Positions 16,601 to 25,903 of a stretch of DNA of 29,163 nt are shown one piece after another. Each line of letters begins with the position of its first letter. Position 1 is the stretch's first letter. The notes under the pieces are model-generated. The model was not told the origin of the DNA, did not search any database, and saw only the letters and a list, made by a program, of their open reading frames with translations. The stretch is taken from NCBI GenBank assembly GCA_964579455.1, contig CAZOHQ010000001.1, positions 1 through 29,163 of the forward strand, in the 5' to 3' direction. This stretch comes from an uncultured Syntrophaceae bacterium. GTDB lineage: Bacteria > Desulfobacterota > Syntrophia > Syntrophales > UBA2210. The translations under genes and the position numbers were made by a program.

Positions 16601-17827
16601 CTATTCTAAGATGGTGTATGCTGACTCGTGGTGCTGGGTCAGGTCAAGTCCTACCAGTTCATCTTCCCTGTCGACCCTCATACCGAAGATGGCATCTACA
16701 ACCTTATAGAGAATCCATGTCACGATGAGCGCATAAGCAATGCATGCAACGAGGTAAAATCCCTGAATGAGAAAGAGTTCTACATTACCGAAAAGAAGGC
16801 CATTTGCCCCAGCTTCGTTTATAACCTTTTCAGCAAAGAGCCCTGTAGCGAGAGTGCCCCACATTCCCCCTACACCATGGACACCAAAAACGTCAAACGC
16901 ATCATCGTATCCAAATTTTGCTTTTACTGCGGTTACAGCCATATAGCAGATCATGCTGGCTATTATTCCTATCACGATTGCCGAGAGAGGGCTGACGAAT
17001 CCGCAGGCAGGTGTGATGGCAACAAGGCCGGCGAGCGCGCCGGTGACAATACCAAGCGTCGTAGGAGCTCCGTGCCGCTGCCATTCAATCAGTGCCCAGG
17101 TAACACCGGCAGCGGCTGCTGCCGTGTTGGTGGTGACAAAGGCATTCGCGGCGAGGCCTCCTGCCCCCAATGCACTGCCCGCATTAAATCCGAACCATCC
17201 GAACCAGAGGAGCGCGCCTCCCAGAACCGTCAAAGTCAGATTGTGAGGTGCAAAACCATGGCCATTGGTTCGTATTCTTTTCCCGATAAGGATTGCCATC
17301 AGGAGTGCGGAAACCCCGGAACTGACATGGACGACGATTCCCCCGGCGAAATCGAGCGCCCCGAGATTACTCAGCCATCCACCTCCCCATACCCAGTGAG
17401 CGATCGGATCATACACAAAGGTTGTCCATAGAAGCATCATTATTACAAAGGCGGAAAACTTGATTCGCTCGGCAAATGCTCCAACGATCAGGGCCGGTGT
17501 GATAATGGCAAACATGGCCTGAAATATCATAAAGACAAGGTGCGGAATCGTGCCTGAATAATTGCCGTCCGGTTCGAATCCAACCCCTCTCAGCCCCGCC
17601 CACTGGAGACTTCCGATAATTCCGTGCACGTCCGGTCCAAAGGCGAGAGAATAACCGAAAAGGACCCATTGCAGACTCATGAGACACATTATGAAGTAAC
17701 ACTGCATCAGTACAGACAGCATATTCTTCCTTCGGGCCAACCCTCCGTAAAAGAGGGCAACGCCCGGCGTCATGATGAAAACGAGAGCGGCACAGGTCAT
17801 CACCCATGCGGTATCACCAGTATTCAT
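16601..17827 (-). CDS. amtB: Ammonium transporter
   Basis: FQAMFAIIT, AHWVWGGG, DFAGGIVVH, LWFGWFGFNAGS, DVFGVHG (both pore His, Phe gate and Trp retained); GGAGG RBS. Confidence 0.97.
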   Translation of the reverse strand: MNTGDTAWVMTCAALVFIMTPGVALFYGGLARRKNMLSVLMQCYFIMCLMSLQWVLFGYSLAFGPDVHGIIGSLQWAGLRGVGFEPDGNYSGTIPHLVFMIFQAMFAIITPALIVGAFAERIKFSAFVIMMLLWTTFVYDPIAHWVWGGGWLSNLGALDFAGGIVVHVSSGVSALLMAILIGKRIRTNGHGFAPHNLTLTVLGGALLWFGWFGFNAGSALGAGGLAANAFVTTNTAAAAAGVTWALIEWQRHGAPTTLGIVTGALAGLVAITPACGFVSPLSAIVIGIIASMICYMAVTAVKAKFGYDDAFDVFGVHGVGGMWGTLATGLFAEKVINEAGANGLLFGNVELFLIQGFYLVACIAYALIVTWILYKVVDAIFGMRVDREDELVGLDLTQHHESAYTILE

Positions 17828-18016: not shown

Positions 18017-18145
18017 TATTCTCCATCCTTATCAATGTGACGGTCGAAATGAAGGCAGCAAGTGAAGGTGGTTACTCTGTATTTGCTACAGCCCTGTTAA
18101 TGGGATACAGGGCAGGCTGGTAACTTACACACGAGGAGCATGAGG

Positions 18146-19708
18146 ATGGAGCAGAAGGAAAAGCATAAAGCAACCCGGAAGAGCAGGGAAATGAGTGAAC
18201 TTTCCTTGCTCTACGAAGTCAGCCAGGCCCTTGGTCGAAGCCTGGAAATTCGAGAAGTGACAGGACCCGTATTAAATGCACTGGCGGAGAAAATGGGTAT
18301 GACACGGGGGACACTGACACTCCTCAATAGAAACAGTGGAGAGATGTTTATAGAGATAGCCCACGGATTATCCGAGATGCAGAAAAAGAAGGGACGATAT
18401 CAGATAGGCGAAGGAGTTACCGGCAAGGTAGTGGAAACCGGCCAGCCAGTAATCGTTCCCCACATCTCCGATGAACCCCTTTTTCTGGACAGGACGGGAT
18501 CACGAAAAGATCTTAACAAAACGGACATTTCTTACATCTGTGTCCCCATAAAAATTGGAACGGAGGTCATCGGGGCCCTCAGCGCCGACAGGCTCTTTGA
18601 CGAGACCATATCCCTAAAAGAGGATGTACGACTCCTTTCGATTATTGCATCCATGGTAGCCCAGGCAGTTCGGCTTCGCCAGGAGACACAGGAAGAACGT
18701 GAACTGCTGATTCAGGAAAACCTGCGCCTGCAGAGCGAATTGAAAGAAAAGTTTCGTCCCTCGAATATCATAGGCAAGTCCAAGGGAATACAGGAGGTAT
18801 ATCAACTCATTGCCCAGGTATCCAACAGCACTGCCAACGTATTGATCCGGGGTGAAAGCGGGACAGGCAAAGAGCTTATAGCAAATGCCATTCATTTTAA
18901 CAGTATGAGGGCCAGTAAACCCCTGGTCAAGGTCAATTGTGCCGCACTCCCCGAAACGGTCCTCGAAAGCGAGCTTTTCGGTCATGAAAAGGGAGCTTTT
19001 ACGGGAGCCACTTCCTTGAGAAAGGGGCGATTTGAACTGTCTCATGGGGGGACAATATTTCTCGACGAGGTGGGAGATCTTCCCCCAATGGTACAAATAC
19101 GGCTTTTGAGGGTCCTCCAGGAACGCGAATTTGAGCGGGTGGGCGGAACCCAGACGATGAAAATCGATGTGCGGGTGATTGCAGCGACAAACAGGAATCT
19201 GGAAACATTGATGGAAAAGGGAGATTTCAGGCAGGATCTCTACTATCGGCTCAATGTATTCCCCATCTATGTGCCCCCTCTCAGAGAACGGAAATCTGAC
19301 ATTCTGCTTCTCACCGACTTCTTTGTGGAACGGTACGCCAGGGCAAATAATAAGAGGATTCAGCGAATCTGTACCCATGCCATAGACATGCTTATGAGTT
19401 ATCACTGGCCGGGTAATGTCAGGGAATTGGAAAACAGTATTGAGCGGGCAGTCCTTCTCAGCAATGAGGGTGTGATCTATGGATATCATCTTCCCCCCAC
19501 GCTGCAGACCTCTGCATATTCAGGAACGATTCCCTATGGAACGCTTCAGGGCGAGGTTGACCGATATGAGCGCGATCTCATAATGGATGCCCTGAAGACC
19601 TCAAGGGGAAACATGTCAAGGGCTGCGAAAATTCTCGGTACCACGGAAAGAATCATCGGATTGCGGGCCCAGAAATACGATATAGACTCTAAGCGCTTTC
19701 GTACATAA
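18146..19708 (+). CDS. NifA-type sigma54-dependent transcriptional activator (GAF-AAA+-Fis HTH)
   Basis: N-terminal GAF, GESGTGKE, GAFTGA, FLDEVGDL, WPGNVREL, C-terminal HTH (RGNMSRAAKILG). Start 18146 is preferred to 18140 on RBS spacing (GAGGAG at 18133-18138). Confidence 0.95.
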   Translation: MEQKEKHKATRKSREMSELSLLYEVSQALGRSLEIREVTGPVLNALAEKMGMTRGTLTLLNRNSGEMFIEIAHGLSEMQKKKGRYQIGEGVTGKVVETGQPVIVPHISDEPLFLDRTGSRKDLNKTDISYICVPIKIGTEVIGALSADRLFDETISLKEDVRLLSIIASMVAQAVRLRQETQEERELLIQENLRLQSELKEKFRPSNIIGKSKGIQEVYQLIAQVSNSTANVLIRGESGTGKELIANAIHFNSMRASKPLVKVNCAALPETVLESELFGHEKGAFTGATSLRKGRFELSHGGTIFLDEVGDLPPMVQIRLLRVLQEREFERVGGTQTMKIDVRVIAATNRNLETLMEKGDFRQDLYYRLNVFPIYVPPLRERKSDILLLTDFFVERYARANNKRIQRICTHAIDMLMSYHWPGNVRELENSIERAVLLSNEGVIYGYHLPPTLQTSAYSGTIPYGTLQGEVDRYERDLIMDALKTSRGNMSRAAKILGTTERIIGLRAQKYDIDSKRFRT

Positions 19709-19744
19709 AAGTAATTACCGAAGCATAATCCTACATAATGGTGG
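19701..19744. promoter_or_regulatory. Tandem putative enhancer (UAS) sites upstream of the glnA promoter
   Basis: GTACA-TAAA-AGTAA (19701-19714, overlapping the activator stop codon) and CTACA-TAAT-GGTGG (19731-19744), 30 bp apart. Confidence 0.7.
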
Positions 19745-19841
19745 AATTTTTTAGCATATCCACCGTCATTTTCTCTCGTTACATTGGCAGAACATCAGTT
19801 AATACATGACTATAGATCATGTTTTTTCAAACTGATGACTT

Positions 19842-19856
19842 TGGCACTAAAGTTGC
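19842..19856 (+). promoter_or_regulatory. sigma54 (-24/-12) promoter
   Basis: TGGCAC-TAAAG-TTGC consensus match, 30 nt upstream of the glnA remnant ATG. Confidence 0.88.
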
Positions 19857-19885
19857 TCTTCATAGGAGGAACTGGAGAAGGTGCC

Positions 19886-20409
19886 ATGCCAATAAAACAC
19901 AAATATTCTGTTTTTAAATAGGCAAGAGAGAAGCATGTACAGTTTATCCGCTTGTGGTTCACGGATGTACTCGGTTTTCTCAAGAGCTTTTCCATCTCCC
20001 CCCGGGAGCTGGAACTCGCCTTTGAAGAGGGTATGGGGTTCGACGGTTCGTCCATAGAAGGGTTCGCGCGGATCGAAGAGATCGATATGGTTGCGAAACC
20101 CGATCCCGGCACCTTTGCCATTCTGCCCTGGCGGGTATGAAAGGTATGGAGGAAGGATACCTCCTGGCCGGTTCTATTGAAGAGGATATCTTTGAGATGT
20201 CTGAAAAAGAGCGAGAAGACAGGGATATCGAATCTCTGCCGGGAAGCCTTGGAGAGGCGATACAGATGACGGAAAAAAGCGAACTTGTCAGAGAGGCACT
20301 GGGAGACCACATATTCAATAAATTTAACGAGAACAAGAAGATAGAGTGGGATCACTACCACGTGCACGTAAGCGATTATGAGCTGGGCAAGCACCTGCCT
20401 ATCCTTTGA
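19886..20409 (+). pseudogene. glnA: Glutamine synthetase type I remnant: premature TAG plus large internal deletion and frameshift
   Basis: ATG 19886, TAG at 19919-19921, then ..[30 protein letters not shown] (GS N-terminus). This is joined at ~20134 to a different frame, [32 protein letters not shown] (GS C-terminus). The catalytic core is absent. Confidence 0.92.
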
Positions 20410-21137
20410 TTATAGTGGAAAAGGCACTCATTATCACCCATGTAAACTCCGAGGGACCTGGTACCCTGGGAGATTTTCTTATATCTCAGAATATAGATAT
20501 AGAGAGGGTTAATTTCTCTCAAGGGGAAGTCCTTCCGAAAGACCCTTTGGAGTATGACATCATTATTACCATGGGCGGACCCATGAGTATCCATGATGAG
20601 GACAGATACCCTTTTTTGAGTGAAGAGGTTGGGTTTTTACGAAAAGCAATAGAGGGTAATGTTCCCCTCCTCGGGATATGTCTCGGGGCACAGCTGATCG
20701 CACGGTCGTGTGGTGCGTGGGTTGGGAAGGCGGAAAAACAAGAACTGGGCTGGAAGGACGTCTTTATTACCGAGGCGGGGAAGAAAGACATGCTTTTTCA
20801 GGGAATCTCGAATGTGATGCGTGTCTTTCAGTGGCATGAGGATACCTTTGATATTCCTCAGGGGTCTACATTCCTTGCGACAGGGTGGGACTGTGAAAAT
20901 CAGGCCTTTCGATATCGTAATGCCTTCGGCCTTCAATTCCATATTGAAGTAACGAGGGAAATGCTGTGTCAATGGTTCGAGGGGAGTCCCGAACTCGATA
21001 CAATATTACAAGGCTATGAAGAGATAGAGGTTGATTTGATAACCCGTGCCAGGACACTCTATTCGAACTTTTTGTGGCTTTCCGATATCCGAAAACGTGC
21101 CTGGGCAGGACAGGACGGGCCTGGTTTGCAGGGATAA
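20406..21137 (+). CDS. Class I glutamine amidotransferase (stand-alone, GMP-synthase-like GAT domain)
   Basis: MGGPMS, LGICLGAQL, FQWHEDTF, QFHIE (Cys-His-Glu triad intact). Start uncertain (TTG 20406 or GTG 20415). Confidence 0.88.
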   Translation: MIIVEKALIITHVNSEGPGTLGDFLISQNIDIERVNFSQGEVLPKDPLEYDIIITMGGPMSIHDEDRYPFLSEEVGFLRKAIEGNVPLLGICLGAQLIARSCGAWVGKAEKQELGWKDVFITEAGKKDMLFQGISNVMRVFQWHEDTFDIPQGSTFLATGWDCENQAFRYRNAFGLQFHIEVTREMLCQWFEGSPELDTILQGYEEIEVDLITRARTLYSNFLWLSDIRKRAWAGQDGPGLQG

Positions 21138-21154
21138 ATTAATGGAGGGGCGGT

Positions 21155-22204
21155 ATGTGTGGAATCGTCGGAATAATAAATACTGACGGAACATTAATCG
21201 ACGGAAGTCATATAAGGGAAGCTATCAGGATTCAGCGTGATCGGGGAAACGGTCTCGGTGGCGGCTTTGCCGTCTATGGTTTGTATCCCGAAAACAGAGA
21301 GAAATATGCCTTTCATATCATGTATGAAGGGGGCCGAAATAGTCCCGTTATTTCCATCGTCGAGGATTACCTGGAAACCAAGGCGAACATCTATCAGTCG
21401 GAGCAGATACCGGTATATCCGAATGATCGCATAAGCAAAGGGCCCTATTTTAAACGGTATTTTTTGAAACCTATCGAAGAATTTATCAGCCCGGAACAGA
21501 CGGAAGAGGACTATATCGTTGAGGTGGTGATGGCCATCAACAAGACGGAGGGGGCCTTCGTACTGTCTTCCGGAAAGAATATGGGTGTATTCAAGGGAGT
21601 AGGCTATCCCGAGGATATAGCCGATTATTTCAGGATAGAGAATTATACGGGGTACACATGGACCGCCCACAATCGCTTTCCTACCAATACCCCGGGCTGG
21701 TGGGGAGGGGCACATCCTTTCACCCTTCTCGACAAGGCGGTGGTCCATAATGGCGAAATTACCAGTTACGGGACAAACGTCCGATGGCTCGAGATGTTCG
21801 GGTATTACTGCATGCTCGAGACCGATACGGAGGTCCTATCCTATATATATGACAAACTGACACGGAAGGATAATCTGACAAAAGAAGATGCCTGTTTTGT
21901 AATGGCCCCTTCACTGTGGGAGACAATTGACCGCACACATGACGGGAAGAAGCGGTATCTCAGACAGATTTACGGACCTGCCATAGTAAACGGGCCATTC
22001 GGAATCGTCTTAACCCACAAGAGTGGTGCCATTGTCCTCAATGACAGGAACAAACTCCGCCCCGTGGTCTGCGCACAAGATGGTAACACGTACTATGCAT
22101 CCTCCGAAGAGTGCAGCATCAGGCTCCTTTCGCCAAATGTGGAGCGTATCTGGTCGCCCAAGGGCGGTGAACCGGTGATTATAGATTTCCCCGAGGAATT
22201 CTGA
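21155..22204 (+). CDS. Glutamate synthase amidotransferase subunit (class II/Ntn GATase, GltB1/GlxB-like)
   Basis: MCGIVG N-terminal nucleophile, RGNGLGGGF, SSGKNMGVFKGVG, AHNRFPTNT, AHPF, VHNGEI, NDRNKLRP; GGAGGGG RBS. Confidence 0.9.
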   Translation: MCGIVGIINTDGTLIDGSHIREAIRIQRDRGNGLGGGFAVYGLYPENREKYAFHIMYEGGRNSPVISIVEDYLETKANIYQSEQIPVYPNDRISKGPYFKRYFLKPIEEFISPEQTEEDYIVEVVMAINKTEGAFVLSSGKNMGVFKGVGYPEDIADYFRIENYTGYTWTAHNRFPTNTPGWWGGAHPFTLLDKAVVHNGEITSYGTNVRWLEMFGYYCMLETDTEVLSYIYDKLTRKDNLTKEDACFVMAPSLWETIDRTHDGKKRYLRQIYGPAIVNGPFGIVLTHKSGAIVLNDRNKLRPVVCAQDGNTYYASSEECSIRLLSPNVERIWSPKGGEPVIIDFPEEF

Positions 22205-22206
22205 CC

Positions 22207-23739
22207 GTGAGTGAAAAGATGAGCATGAAAAACAATTGGAAAGTACGACCCTCCTTCCATCCCGAGTTCGACCTCGAAAGGTGTGACTATAAGAACGGCT
22301 GCACCATATGTGTGAAGGAATGTTCGTTCGGGGAGATTTCACTCAAACCCCTCAAGGGGAAAAACGGTGATATTCTGTATCGCCCATGGGCAAACATGCG
22401 GGCGTGCAATTCGTGCCAGCGTTGCGTCAAGATGTGTCCCCAGAGTGCCATCCATATTGTATCGCAGCCGATGCACACCTCCCACGGTTACTGGAAGACG
22501 GCACCGGTAAGCAATATCTGGCGTCAGGCCGGTTCCGAAGGAGGAGTGTTGCTGGTGGGTACGGGTGCGACGGGTCCCCAGAAGCGATATTTTGATCACA
22601 TGATGTTCGATGCCTGCCAGGTTACCAATCCCTCCATTGATCCCCTCCGTGAGCCGATGGAGATCAGGCGTTATCTGGGTCGAAAAGCGGAACGGTACGG
22701 TGGAGAGGTCGGTTCGCAACTCAAACTGGACGTACCGATCATGTTCGGGGCCATGAGCTTCGGCGCCTTGAATCTCAGGGTCCAGGAAGCAGCGGCACGA
22801 GCCACGCGAAAGATGGGCACCTACTGGAATACGGGAGAAGGCGGGTTTCACGAGAGGTTGAGAAATTACGGTGGCAATACGATCGTCCAGGTTGCCTCGG
22901 GAAGATTCGGTGTCAGCGAGGATTACATGAAATCGGCTGCGGCCGTAGAAATAAAGATAGGACAAGGTGCAAAGCCAGGAATCGGAGGTCATCTCCCGGG
23001 CGAAAAGGTCTCCGAAGCCATTTCGAAAACGAGAATGATTCCAGAGGGATCCGATGCCCTTTCGCCGGCGCCGCACCACGATATCTATTCCATAGAGGAC
23101 CTGAGGCAACTCATCTATGCGATAAAAGAGGCGACCGATTACAAACTTCCCGTATCGGTAAAGATTTCGGCCGTTAATAATGTTGCCCCCATTGTCAGTG
23201 GTATCGCACGGGCCGGAGCCGACATCATTGCGATTGACGGGTTTCGCGGAGGCACCGGAGCCACACCGCTTCAGATTCGCCAGAATACGGGTATCCCTAT
23301 AGAACTTGCCATATCCGCCGCAGACAGGAGACTTACGGAAGAGGGTATCAGAAACACGGTCAGCCTTGTGGCATCGGGCGGAATACAGACTTCTTCCGAT
23401 GTGTTGAAGGCCATATGTCTTGGCGCTGATGCGGTCTATTTGGGGACACCGGTTCTCATCTCTCTCGGGTGCAATGTCTGCCAACGCTGTTTTACGGGCC
23501 GCTGTCCCTACGGTATTACCACGAACAGGCCCGGTCTGGCGGAAAGGATTGATGTGGATGAAGCAACCCAGGCCCTTTCCAATCTTCTTCATGCCTGGGG
23601 GGAAGAGATAAAAGAGCTCATGGGATCTATGGGAATAAGCGCTATCGAGGCCTTACGGGGAAACAGGGACAGATTGCGCGGTGTGGGTCTCAATGAAGAA
23701 GAATTGAGCATTCTTGGAATCAAACACGCCGGAGCTTGA
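22207..23739 (+). CDS. Glutamate synthase FMN-binding subunit with N-terminal ferredoxin (archaeal-type GltB2/GlxD-like)
   Basis: Cys clusters C..CTICVKEC and CNSCQRCVKMCP; AMSFGAL, NTGEGG, QVASGRFGV, EIKIGQGAKPGIGGHLPGEKV, SPAPHHDIYSIEDL, CNVCQRCFTGRCP. Start uncertain (22207/22219/22225). Confidence 0.92.
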   Translation: MSEKMSMKNNWKVRPSFHPEFDLERCDYKNGCTICVKECSFGEISLKPLKGKNGDILYRPWANMRACNSCQRCVKMCPQSAIHIVSQPMHTSHGYWKTAPVSNIWRQAGSEGGVLLVGTGATGPQKRYFDHMMFDACQVTNPSIDPLREPMEIRRYLGRKAERYGGEVGSQLKLDVPIMFGAMSFGALNLRVQEAAARATRKMGTYWNTGEGGFHERLRNYGGNTIVQVASGRFGVSEDYMKSAAAVEIKIGQGAKPGIGGHLPGEKVSEAISKTRMIPEGSDALSPAPHHDIYSIEDLRQLIYAIKEATDYKLPVSVKISAVNNVAPIVSGIARAGADIIAIDGFRGGTGATPLQIRQNTGIPIELAISAADRRLTEEGIRNTVSLVASGGIQTSSDVLKAICLGADAVYLGTPVLISLGCNVCQRCFTGRCPYGITTNRPGLAERIDVDEATQALSNLLHAWGEEIKELMGSMGISAIEALRGNRDRLRGVGLNEEELSILGIKHAGA

Positions 23740-23740
23740 T

Positions 23741-25903
23741 ATGCTGACGATAGAGACAAAGGGGCTTTACTACAAGGCCCTCAACAGACAGATCAGAAAA
23801 TCGCTGGCACGGGGAGAAAAAGAGATCGTCCTCAACGATGTTCTGGGACAACGCTACATTGGGGGCGGTCTGGAGAGTACTGCGCACTTTGACATCCACG
23901 GCACACCGGGACAAGATCTGGGCGCCTTTATGAACGGTCCCGAGATCGTCGTTTATGGCAATGCCCAGGATGGTGTGGGTAACACCATGAATAAGGGGAG
24001 AATCATCGTCCACGGCAAGGCAGGTGAAATTCCGGGCCACTCGATGCGAGGGGGGGAATTGTTCATCAAGGGCGATGTGGAGTACCGCGCCGGGATACAC
24101 ATGAAAGAATACCTCGATTCCGTGCCCTGGCTCATCATAGGCGGAACGGCCAAGGATTACTGCGGCGAGTATATGGCGGGCGGCAGGGTTGTGGTACTCA
24201 ACCTGAAAAACAGGAAGGTATCACCTGTGGGAGACAGCGTGGGGACGGGCATTCACGGAGGCTCCATCTTCGTGAGGGGCGAGGTCAAGGAATACCAGCT
24301 GGGGACCGGGGCCATTTTTGCCGAACTCGATGAGTCCGACGAAAAATTCTTATATGAGGTCTTTGCCGAATATTCGGGGTATTTCGATACCGATATGAGC
24401 GGCATAGTACCGGGCAATTTTGTAAAGATCACGAAAAAGGGACACCGACCCTTCGCCAGTCTCTATACGCCGGGGATGAATATCAAGACCGATTTGCCTA
24501 TGCATCTGAATCTTACGCCTCCCTGCACACATGCATGTCCTGCCGGGATCCCTACTCCGGTTTTTTTAAACCTTATCAAGGACGGAAAAGTTGACGAAGC
24601 CCAGCGGTTAATGGACGAATATACCCCCTTTCGGATGTCCGTCTGTGGGACCGCCTGCCCCGCACCTTGCATGGATGCATGCAACCGGGGTATGCTTGAC
24701 GACCCGCTCCATTTGCAGGAGATGGCAAAGGAGTTCTATCCCGATTTCAATCCTGATATTCTGGAAGAGGAAAAGGAGCAGATCATTTCCATTATCGGGG
24801 CAGGGCCCGCGGGCCTTTCGGCCGCCTGGCAGCTTGCGAGACGGGGATATAGAATCAGGGTCTATGATGCCTTGAATGATCTTGGCGGTAAGGTGAGGAA
24901 GGCTATCCCCCGCGAAAGACTTTCAGACAAGGTCCTCGACAGGGATATAGAGAGGATTACCTCGCTTCCCATTGAATTTCACATGGGTAAGAGGGTCGAC
25001 CGGAAGATGTTTGAGAAGATCTATACGAAATCCGATGTCATTCTTGTTGCCACCGGAGCCCATACAGGTAAAAGAATCGAATATCCGGGTGGGGAGAGAA
25101 TCCGGTCAGGTCTGCAGTTTCTTATGGACATCAACGAGGGACGGGATATGGACCTCTCGGGAAAAGAGATCGTGATTATCGGCGCCGGTAACGTGGGCAT
25201 GGATATCGCCTGTGAGTCATGGAGAATGGGCGCAAAGAAAGTGACCGCCCTTGATGTCCAGAAACCTCTTGCCTTCGGGCATGAACTTGAAGCGGCCGTG
25301 GCACTGGGAACGGATATTCTCTGGCCTAAATTTATAGAAAGACTGGATGACGAGAATATCTTCTTCAATGATGGAACGGAGATGAAGGCGGATATGGCGC
25401 TTTTCAGCATAGGAGAGATCCCGGACACCTCTTTTCTTCCCGAATCCGTCTTGATCGACGAAAGGGGATATATTGTAACGGCGGAAAAATCCTTCAGGAG
25501 CAGCGATCTGAAGATTTGCGGCTGCGGTGACATACGCAGGCCGGGCCTCATTACCGACGCCGTGGGATCGGGAAGGCTTGCCGCGCTTGAAATCAATACG
25601 ATCTTCACGGGGACCACATTCATCTATCCCGAAAAAAATCTCGTACCGAAAAGACAAATGAATACGATCTATTTCGGCGATGAGGAGGGTGAGATAGATA
25701 GATGTATGAGCTGCGGCACTTGCATCTTTTGCGATAAATGTATAGAAAACTGTCCTCAAGAGGCAATTACCCGTAACGGAGAGATCTTTACAGTAGATCC
25801 TCTCAAATGTACTTTATGCTATACCTGTGCAAATGTATGTCCGCGCGGGGCGATTCAGACCGAGTTCTTCATTGATATCAGGGAAAGTGCCTTTAATGAA
25901 TGA
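23741..25903 (+). CDS. Fusion of glutamate synthase GXGXG beta-helix domain (GltB3/GlxC-like) with GltD-like FAD/NAD(P) oxidoreductase and C-terminal 2x[4Fe-4S] ferredoxin
   Basis: GQRYIG, GTPGQDLGAFMNG, GNAQDGVGNTM, GEYMAGG; then PPC..ACP, CGTACPAPCMDACNR, IIGAGPAGLSAA, IIGAGNVGMD, CGSCxxC-type C-terminal Cys clusters (CMSCGTCIFCDKC..CP, CTLCYTCANVCP). ATG 23741 after GGAG. Confidence 0.88.
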   Translation: MLTIETKGLYYKALNRQIRKSLARGEKEIVLNDVLGQRYIGGGLESTAHFDIHGTPGQDLGAFMNGPEIVVYGNAQDGVGNTMNKGRIIVHGKAGEIPGHSMRGGELFIKGDVEYRAGIHMKEYLDSVPWLIIGGTAKDYCGEYMAGGRVVVLNLKNRKVSPVGDSVGTGIHGGSIFVRGEVKEYQLGTGAIFAELDESDEKFLYEVFAEYSGYFDTDMSGIVPGNFVKITKKGHRPFASLYTPGMNIKTDLPMHLNLTPPCTHACPAGIPTPVFLNLIKDGKVDEAQRLMDEYTPFRMSVCGTACPAPCMDACNRGMLDDPLHLQEMAKEFYPDFNPDILEEEKEQIISIIGAGPAGLSAAWQLARRGYRIRVYDALNDLGGKVRKAIPRERLSDKVLDRDIERITSLPIEFHMGKRVDRKMFEKIYTKSDVILVATGAHTGKRIEYPGGERIRSGLQFLMDINEGRDMDLSGKEIVIIGAGNVGMDIACESWRMGAKKVTALDVQKPLAFGHELEAAVALGTDILWPKFIERLDDENIFFNDGTEMKADMALFSIGEIPDTSFLPESVLIDERGYIVTAEKSFRSSDLKICGCGDIRRPGLITDAVGSGRLAALEINTIFTGTTFIYPEKNLVPKRQMNTIYFGDEEGEIDRCMSCGTCIFCDKCIENCPQEAITRNGEIFTVDPLKCTLCYTCANVCPRGAIQTEFFIDIRESAFNE

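Follow-up and report, generated by a model that had tools for sequence, protein, structure and literature searches.

The stretch from 19886 to 20409 of the contig described here is very probably a pseudogene of glnA, the gene of type I glutamine synthetase (GSI), which arose by deletion between short repeats, was tolerated through a type III glutamine synthetase (GSIII) and has kept its promoter for the genes downstream. The window, that is, the whole stretch of DNA analysed, is the entire contig C1 (29,163 nt) of a MAG of 2.28 Mb that comprises 375 contigs and is 88% complete. In the proposed course of events, the dead copy would once have led the sigma-54-dependent glnA-amidotransferase-glutamate synthase operon of this Syntrophales species, and a single deletion would have taken the whole active site and shifted the frame. 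This is the ordinary decay of a redundant gene, and both phenomena involved, the short-repeat deletion pseudogene and the redundancy of glutamine synthetases (GS), are well known; the glnA case leaves current understanding unchanged. For annotation, it means that glnA should be recorded as a pseudogene and GSIII (GlnN) as the synthetase, and that the species should not be scored as a glutamine auxotroph. Beyond this, it offers a clean natural example of the loss of one of two redundant synthetase classes, both of which belong to one sigma-54 regulon.

The glnA remnants and their operon

What is left of a type I glutamine synthetase gene, two short pieces, lies between the gene of a NifA-like sigma-54 activator (18140-19708) and the amidotransferase/GOGAT genes (20415-25903). 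The same flanks, with the sigma-54 activator on the 5′ side and the class I amidotransferase and GOGAT on the 3′ side, surround the intact gene in the related genome G003, and 19886-20409 is the positional orthologue of the glnA of its relatives. Window and G003 are collinear throughout the 29 kb, at 82-85% nucleotide identity, and the gap in glnA is the only large indel.

The N-terminal remnant (19886-20134, plus strand) consists of 83 codons, from the ATG at 19886 to the CGG at 20132-20134. It matches Gln-synt_N over positions 1-68 of 82 (E 7e-26) and is 93% identical to the G003 protein. The N-terminal beta-grasp domain of GSI is hence recognizable, though it is interrupted at codon 12 by a TAG (19919-19921), where the closest two relatives, G003 and G011, have GAG, and though an ATC at 20081-20083 turns EESDM, the form present in 11/11 aligned relatives, into EEIDM (Ser to Ile). 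The C-terminal remnant (20137-20409, plus strand) is a 90-codon ORF in a shifted frame that matches Gln-synt_C over positions 261-342 of 344 (E 7.5e-17); its frame, of about 91 codons when counted from 20128, ends at the native stop TGA (20407-20409). Between the two, the junction CCCTGGCGGGTATG at 20126-20139 gives P-W-R in the frame of the N-terminal remnant and L-A-G-M in that of the C-terminal one, and the stop TGA of the N-terminal frame (20139-20141) forms an ATGA overlap with the ATG (20137-20139) of the C-terminal frame. The locus is thus laid out as an 11-codon ORF, the TAG, a 71-codon frame, the frame shift and the 90-codon ORF. A complete catalytic domain, with its 344 positions and its metal, ATP and glutamate sites, is absent, as only positions 261-342 are present; the single frame of about 440-470 codons typical of GSI is likewise absent, the relatives having mostly ~436-555 codons. 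The first-pass annotation had described 83 N-terminal codons fused to about 91 C-terminal codons, a junction readable in both frames, a TAG at codon 12 and EEIDM for EESDM. All of these features are real: Pfam matches are found on both sides of the fusion, and the relatives carry GAG and Ser at the two altered codons.

The extent of the loss is defined by aligning the DNA with the glnA genes of G003 and G011, which are intact, syntenic and 443 codons long; a single clean gap of 808 nt (269.3 codons) appears. This agrees with the earlier estimate that roughly 270 codons including the active site are missing. The G003 gene measures 1332 nt, of which the window keeps 524 nt; the deletion takes in the last part of the N-domain and, in the catalytic domain, positions 1-260 out of 344. 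As 808 is not divisible by three, the frame shifts. Amber read-through and programmed frameshifting can be excluded as explanations, since recoding cannot restore 269 missing codons. Thirty related genomes were compared; the N-terminal piece is matched in 25 of them, all 25 having open GS frames (~436-555 codons except for two shorter ones), and a comparable gap is absent from every one of these matching relatives.

The regulatory region upstream is preserved, and so are the genes downstream, in agreement with the earlier observation that promoter and GOGAT are kept. Two paired dyad sites with a spacing of exactly 30 bp (TAC-N6-GTA and TAC-N6-GTG) can be read at 19702-19743 (plus strand) and are kept in G003 and G011; they are presumed to act as enhancer for the adjoining NifA-like activator. 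The sigma-54 promoter of the glnA-amidotransferase-GOGAT operon, TGGCACTAAAGTTGCT at 19842-19857 (plus strand), is intact, and its TTGGCAC-N5-TTGC core is kept in the same two relatives. Genome-wide, 31 sigma-54 sites were found against ~2 expected by chance, and a dyad pair followed by a sigma-54 site occurs at only four genomic places in a regex scan, two of these in the window. The spacing between promoter and coding region varies among the relatives: G003 (L004, G003:C5) has ~67 extra nt between the sigma-54 promoter and the glnA start, before the ribosome-binding site and opposite 19858/19859 of the window, a segment that is absent from the window and from G011.

The first intact gene downstream encodes the class I glutamine amidotransferase (20415-21137, plus strand, identified by Pfam), whose GTG start lies 5 nt past the glnA stop. 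It is called as a protein of 240 aa in the other assemblies; the exact 240-aa sequence gave no record in a look-up meant to find more contigs. Three glutamate synthase genes follow (21155-25903, plus strand, identified by Pfam). These four genes all have their full length, their dN/dS against G003 is 0.04-0.12, and they have as few private changes as their counterparts in G003. On these sequence comparisons, they clearly appear to remain under purifying selection.

Breakpoint repeat and mechanism of the deletion

Bacterial pseudogenes can arise by deletion between short direct repeats, through replication slippage or illegitimate, RecA-independent recombination. In order to locate such a repeat, the 36 nt to the left of the junction were compared with G003's intact gene after the genuine left site had been masked. 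This 36-mer has its best second match exactly at the right breakpoint, and the same holds for the gene of G014. The left repeat copy CCTTTGCCATTCTGCCCTGGCGG (20112-20134), which is followed by GTATG of the right flank (together 20112-20139, plus strand, as defined by alignments to relatives), aligns to CCTTTGCGATTATG--CTGGCGG of G003 with 19/21 identities and a 2-nt gap, giving a score of 14. Among 441 control 36-mers from the G003 gene, only 0.7% reach this score, which was also the maximum seen. The breakpoints therefore lie in an imperfect direct repeat of 21-23 nt that contains CTGGCGG. The score compares the left flank of the window with the right flank of a relative, in place of the ancestral allele; the two sites of the G003 gene itself show no more than average similarity to each other (score 10). 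The resemblance of the sites is due to what they encode, ..TFAILPWR on the left and ..AFAIMLAAG on the right.

The dual reading of the junction finds its explanation in the same repeat. The motif CTGGCGG is read (C)CC-TGG-CGG at the left site and CTG-GCG-G at the right site, one base out of register, and this offset produces both the frameshift and a junction that is readable in both frames. The dual-frame junction is thus a mere footprint of repeat-mediated deletion. A clean exchange between the two CTGGCGG copies predicts the loss of 805 nt, against 808 nt missing, and the conserved LAAGM has also lost one Ala codon. Because of this mismatch and of the lost Ala codon, the crossover is placed only approximately, at about 20134-20136; the perfect microhomology there could be 2-6 nt, depending on the ancestral codons, or else the 7-nt CTGGCGG, combined with a 3-nt loss of separate origin.

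Taken as a class of event, a deletion mediated by short homology is well supported by the alignments. A direct repeat is present at both breakpoints when the left flank of the window is compared with the right site of G003, and the proposal of a microhomology-mediated deletion is more strongly borne out than had been guessed, given breakpoints in a 21-23 nt imperfect repeat. The CTGGCGG repeat suggested in the first-pass annotation was indeed recovered within it on alignment to the closest intact glnA, that of G003. The event would then be one deletion of ~808 nt between copies of the ~21-23 nt imperfect repeat (encoding ..FAILPWR and ..FAIMLAAG), and replication slippage or another short-homology, RecA-independent event would be its likely mechanism. 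The locus resembles known short-repeat deletion pseudogenes in that the internal deletion ends in a short imperfect direct repeat of which one hybrid copy is left, and in that a frameshift is followed by point lesions under relaxed selection. It differs from them in that the repeat is imperfect, with a 2-nt offset and 3 nt more lost than in a clean CTGGCGG exchange, and in that the mechanism is read from relatives rather than from the ancestral allele.

Decay of the remnants and reality of the lesions

Apart from the deletion, and whether before or after it, the remnants would have accumulated the GAG-to-TAG change at codon 12 and the substitutions S>I, P>S, I>N, R>H and Y>H. These five substitutions are private to the window, fall at otherwise invariant columns and are all radical; S>I belongs to the N-terminal remnant and the other four to the C-terminal one. 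At such columns, the closest relatives show 0 and 2 changes of their own, and two more distant genera alone reach 5-6, mostly conservative. When all private amino-acid changes are counted with G011 as outgroup, the ratio of window to G003 to G011 is 15:7:9 in the remnants; four flanking genes give 68:68:173. By Fisher's test, P is 0.003 when the two relatives are pooled and 0.001 for G011, while the comparison with G003 by itself is non-significant (P = 0.17). The remnants thus have a modest excess of private changes, and the nonsense codon, the five radical changes and the 15:7:9 ratio together give a modest signal of relaxed selection after inactivation. Within the N-terminal remnant, strain SNPs comprise five non-synonymous changes and one synonymous change (codons read by hand), including F>C at an invariant Phe.

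The dN/dS of the N-terminal remnant against G003 is 0.04 and is uninformative as a test of decay at a dS of 0.6-0.9, for which reason the counts of private changes were used in its place; the low value reflects the fact that most of the divergence predates the lesion. Judging from these sequence comparisons, the inactivation would be recent relative to the split from G003, yet older than the coalescence of the sampled strains. The strain SNPs themselves are unevenly distributed. They cluster at 19848-20005, from the promoter to the N-terminal remnant, with 9-10 per 300 nt in L015 and L016, while the C-terminal remnant is without them (none within 20130-20470) and few occur in the next 600 nt.

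The earlier view that the locus reflects real decay rather than mis-assembly is upheld by independent assemblies as well as by the excess of private radical substitutions just described. The exact 90-aa C-terminal ORF is found on three contigs assembled separately from SAMN06140901, SAMN06140898 and SAMN06140900. These sister contigs are 98.5-99.2% identical to the window and differ from it by 0.8-1.5% (9-94 SNPs), so that other strains are represented, and in 3/3 of them the junction CCCTGGCGGGTATG, the TAG and the ATC are identical. The recurrence of the same junction, TAG and ATC in three assemblies of three samples makes mis-assembly very unlikely, and the assembly-level comparison indicates a reproducible lesion that is fixed in the sampled population. 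All three supporting assemblies belong to one study, and fixation is shown only for that site or sample series. A separate feature of the strain comparison concerns the 5′ end of the ammonium transporter gene, where 17403-17702 differs from the sister assembly L015 by 42 substitutions in 300 nt, against a rate of 0-10 per 300 nt elsewhere, and resembles a recombined strain segment.

Two alternatives bear on the reality and on the fixation of the lesion. An assembly or binning artefact, in which an intact glnA would have had two of its parts wrongly joined or would have suffered consensus errors, might be suspected in a MAG as fragmented and incomplete as this one (375 contigs, 88% complete), but it is extremely improbable, since all three lesions are the same in three assemblies that are distinguishable by SNPs. 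In addition, the sequence shared at the breakpoints is far below assembler k-mer length, the overlap between contig ends in this assembly being 55 nt; no other GSI fragment is found in the bin, and the remnants have decayed beyond what the deletion alone would entail. Alternatively, the deletion could be real but polymorphic, with an intact glnA allele persisting in part of the population or in sister populations. Strain diversity does exist, at 0.8-1.5% between assemblies, assemblers give majority paths only, and the evidence all comes from samples of one study; even so, such polymorphism is improbable. All four versions of the locus, divergent strains included, have all three lesions, and from the additional substitutions in the remnants it follows that inactivation lies some time back. 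Moreover, a metagenome scan with the nearest intact GS, based on G003-derived peptide patterns that could miss an allele, gave no same-species intact allele closer than G003 itself.

The type III synthetase and the persistence of the remnants

The loss of GSI would have been tolerated because the lineage already had an intact synthetase of type III (GlnN type). In a whole-bin Pfam search, one other glutamine synthetase match was obtained, on C228, where it is cut by the contig end. The end of C321 supplies the missing N-terminus and shares an overlap of exactly 55 nt with the end of C228. The gene joined across this contig break encodes a stop-free protein of 698 aa with the three domains GSIII_N (PF12437), Gln-synt_C (PF00120) and Gln-synt_C-ter (PF18318) in one frame of about 700 aa, as in GSIII, and it matches the Bacteroides fragilis GSIII structure 3O6X over residues 4-696 (E 6e-185). 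The first-pass annotation had held that the glutamine source was lost, a conclusion that is not borne out given this complete type III synthetase on C321 and C228; its proposal to search the genome for another GS proved fruitful, as the GSIII found has its own sigma-54 promoter and 30-bp dyad pair. Orthologues 86-91% identical to it occur in G003, G011 and G013, which also have an intact GSI, so that the ancestor had both enzymes and C321 and C228 belong to the lineage. The transition is complete elsewhere in the order, since 5/5 GSI-less relatives (G015, G020, G022, G027 and G030) have GSIII.

The regulation of the type III gene parallels that of the glnA operon. A sigma-54 site, TGGTACATCTCTTGCT, was located at C321:2378 by genome scan, and a dyad pair, TACAAAATTGTA ... 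AACATAATTGTT, with its members 30 bp apart, at C321:2270 by regex scan. The upstream region spans C321:2270-2393, the gene extends from C321:2474 onward, and the arrangement is like that of the three units in the window. G003 and G011 likewise have a sigma-54 site with a 30-bp dyad pair ahead of their type III genes, and in G013 the sigma-54 site is present. As the architecture in G003 and G011 is alike, GSIII was already in the same nitrogen regulon before GSI was lost. The fourth genomic dyad pair with 30-bp spacing lies at C51:3913-4075, together with a sigma-54 promoter, TGGCACCTAAATTGCT, and is followed by a 455-codon frame from about C51:4179.

Orthology, together with published organisms that have only GSIII, suggests that GSIII compensates functionally for the lost GSI. 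GSIII is the sole glutamine synthetase in Pseudanabaena PCC 6903, which like Synechococcus RS9917 is without glnA, and a glnA-deficient mutant of Synechocystis PCC 6803 grows using GlnN (PMC6316151). The present case is similar to this cyanobacterial redundancy in that two non-orthologous GS classes stand under one nitrogen regulator and one of them is dispensable, some lineages relying on GSIII alone, as the GSI-less relatives do here. It differs in its regulator, which is a sigma-54/NifA-like activator and not NtcA, in its host, an anaerobic Syntrophales MAG known from sequence alone, and in that the loss is visible as a pseudogene and not as a clean absence. Blochmannia vafer has also lost glnA (PMC3017870), by a lineage-specific deletion confirmed, as here, in several independent samples. 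That bacterium, however, is an obligate endosymbiont that has lost all ammonium assimilation and depends on its host (PMC3017870), whereas ammonium assimilation is retained in the present genome, and the likeness is superficial only. The genome keeps GSIII, GOGAT, an ammonium transporter and PII, and thus no host dependency is implied; a search of the bin for glutamate dehydrogenase (PF00208) gave nothing above cut-off. With the MAG at 88% completeness, a further GS gene, or a defect in the unseen part of the nitrogen network, may exist. No claim is made of reciprocal GSIII pseudogenes in G009 and G005, as the fragment in G009 is merely cut by a contig end and the match in G005 is weak. In G013, a genome of the same genus, a second match resembling the GS N-domain (G013:C2:33925-34125; 49% identity) is interrupted by three TGA codons in frame and could represent a further GS paralogue in decay.

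What would keep promoter, enhancer and both remnants in place is that the amidotransferase and glutamate synthase genes continue to be transcribed through them. Retention for downstream transcription is the simplest reading of the locus, with these genes presumably still expressed. A sigma-70 promoter scan found no plus-strand promoter inside the remnants, and a terminator scan found only weak terminator-like hairpins at chance level. An Rfam scan of 19600-20500 gave no match at E <= 1, and a riboswitch or sRNA reading is therefore set aside.

It may be asked whether the remnants owe their retention to some role that they themselves play, either as a translated leader that acts against polarity or as a small protein of 90 aa derived from the C-terminal part. 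The ATGA stop-start overlap (20137-20141) created at the junction would suit such a role, as would the end of the C-terminal ORF at its native stop, 5 nt ahead of the next start, the zero strain SNPs within 20130-20470 and the downstream genes that are clearly still selected. Nevertheless, the C-terminal remnant has 11 private changes in 90 residues, four of them at otherwise invariant positions, and its SNP-free stretch fits its surroundings, 20103-21000, where diversity is low in general. A good Shine-Dalgarno sequence is missing ahead of 20137, most translation from upstream ends at the codon-12 TAG, and neither an Rfam family nor an extra promoter was found. Since the remnant peptide is clearly not conserved, a leader or coupling role has a low probability, and an own function of either kind is very unlikely. 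In a broader version, GSI would have been given up adaptively in favour of GSIII, for instance because it is costly where ammonium is plentiful, and the gutted gene would serve as a translated leader. If it were true, ribosomes would be kept coupled across the remnant by the ATGA overlap and the native stop while the sigma-54 promoter still drives the amidotransferase and GOGAT genes. This version is unlikely too, and the decay of a redundant gene with a promoter retained for its neighbours remains the preferred reading.

A second stretch of the window lies after a sigma-54 promoter, the first of the contig. Neither the window nor G003 has a long ORF in the segment 3088-3606, and the two sequences align there at 67% identity with 48 gap columns, against 84% in the flanks. 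If this segment is a gene remnant, its origin would predate the split from G003, unlike the glnA deletion.
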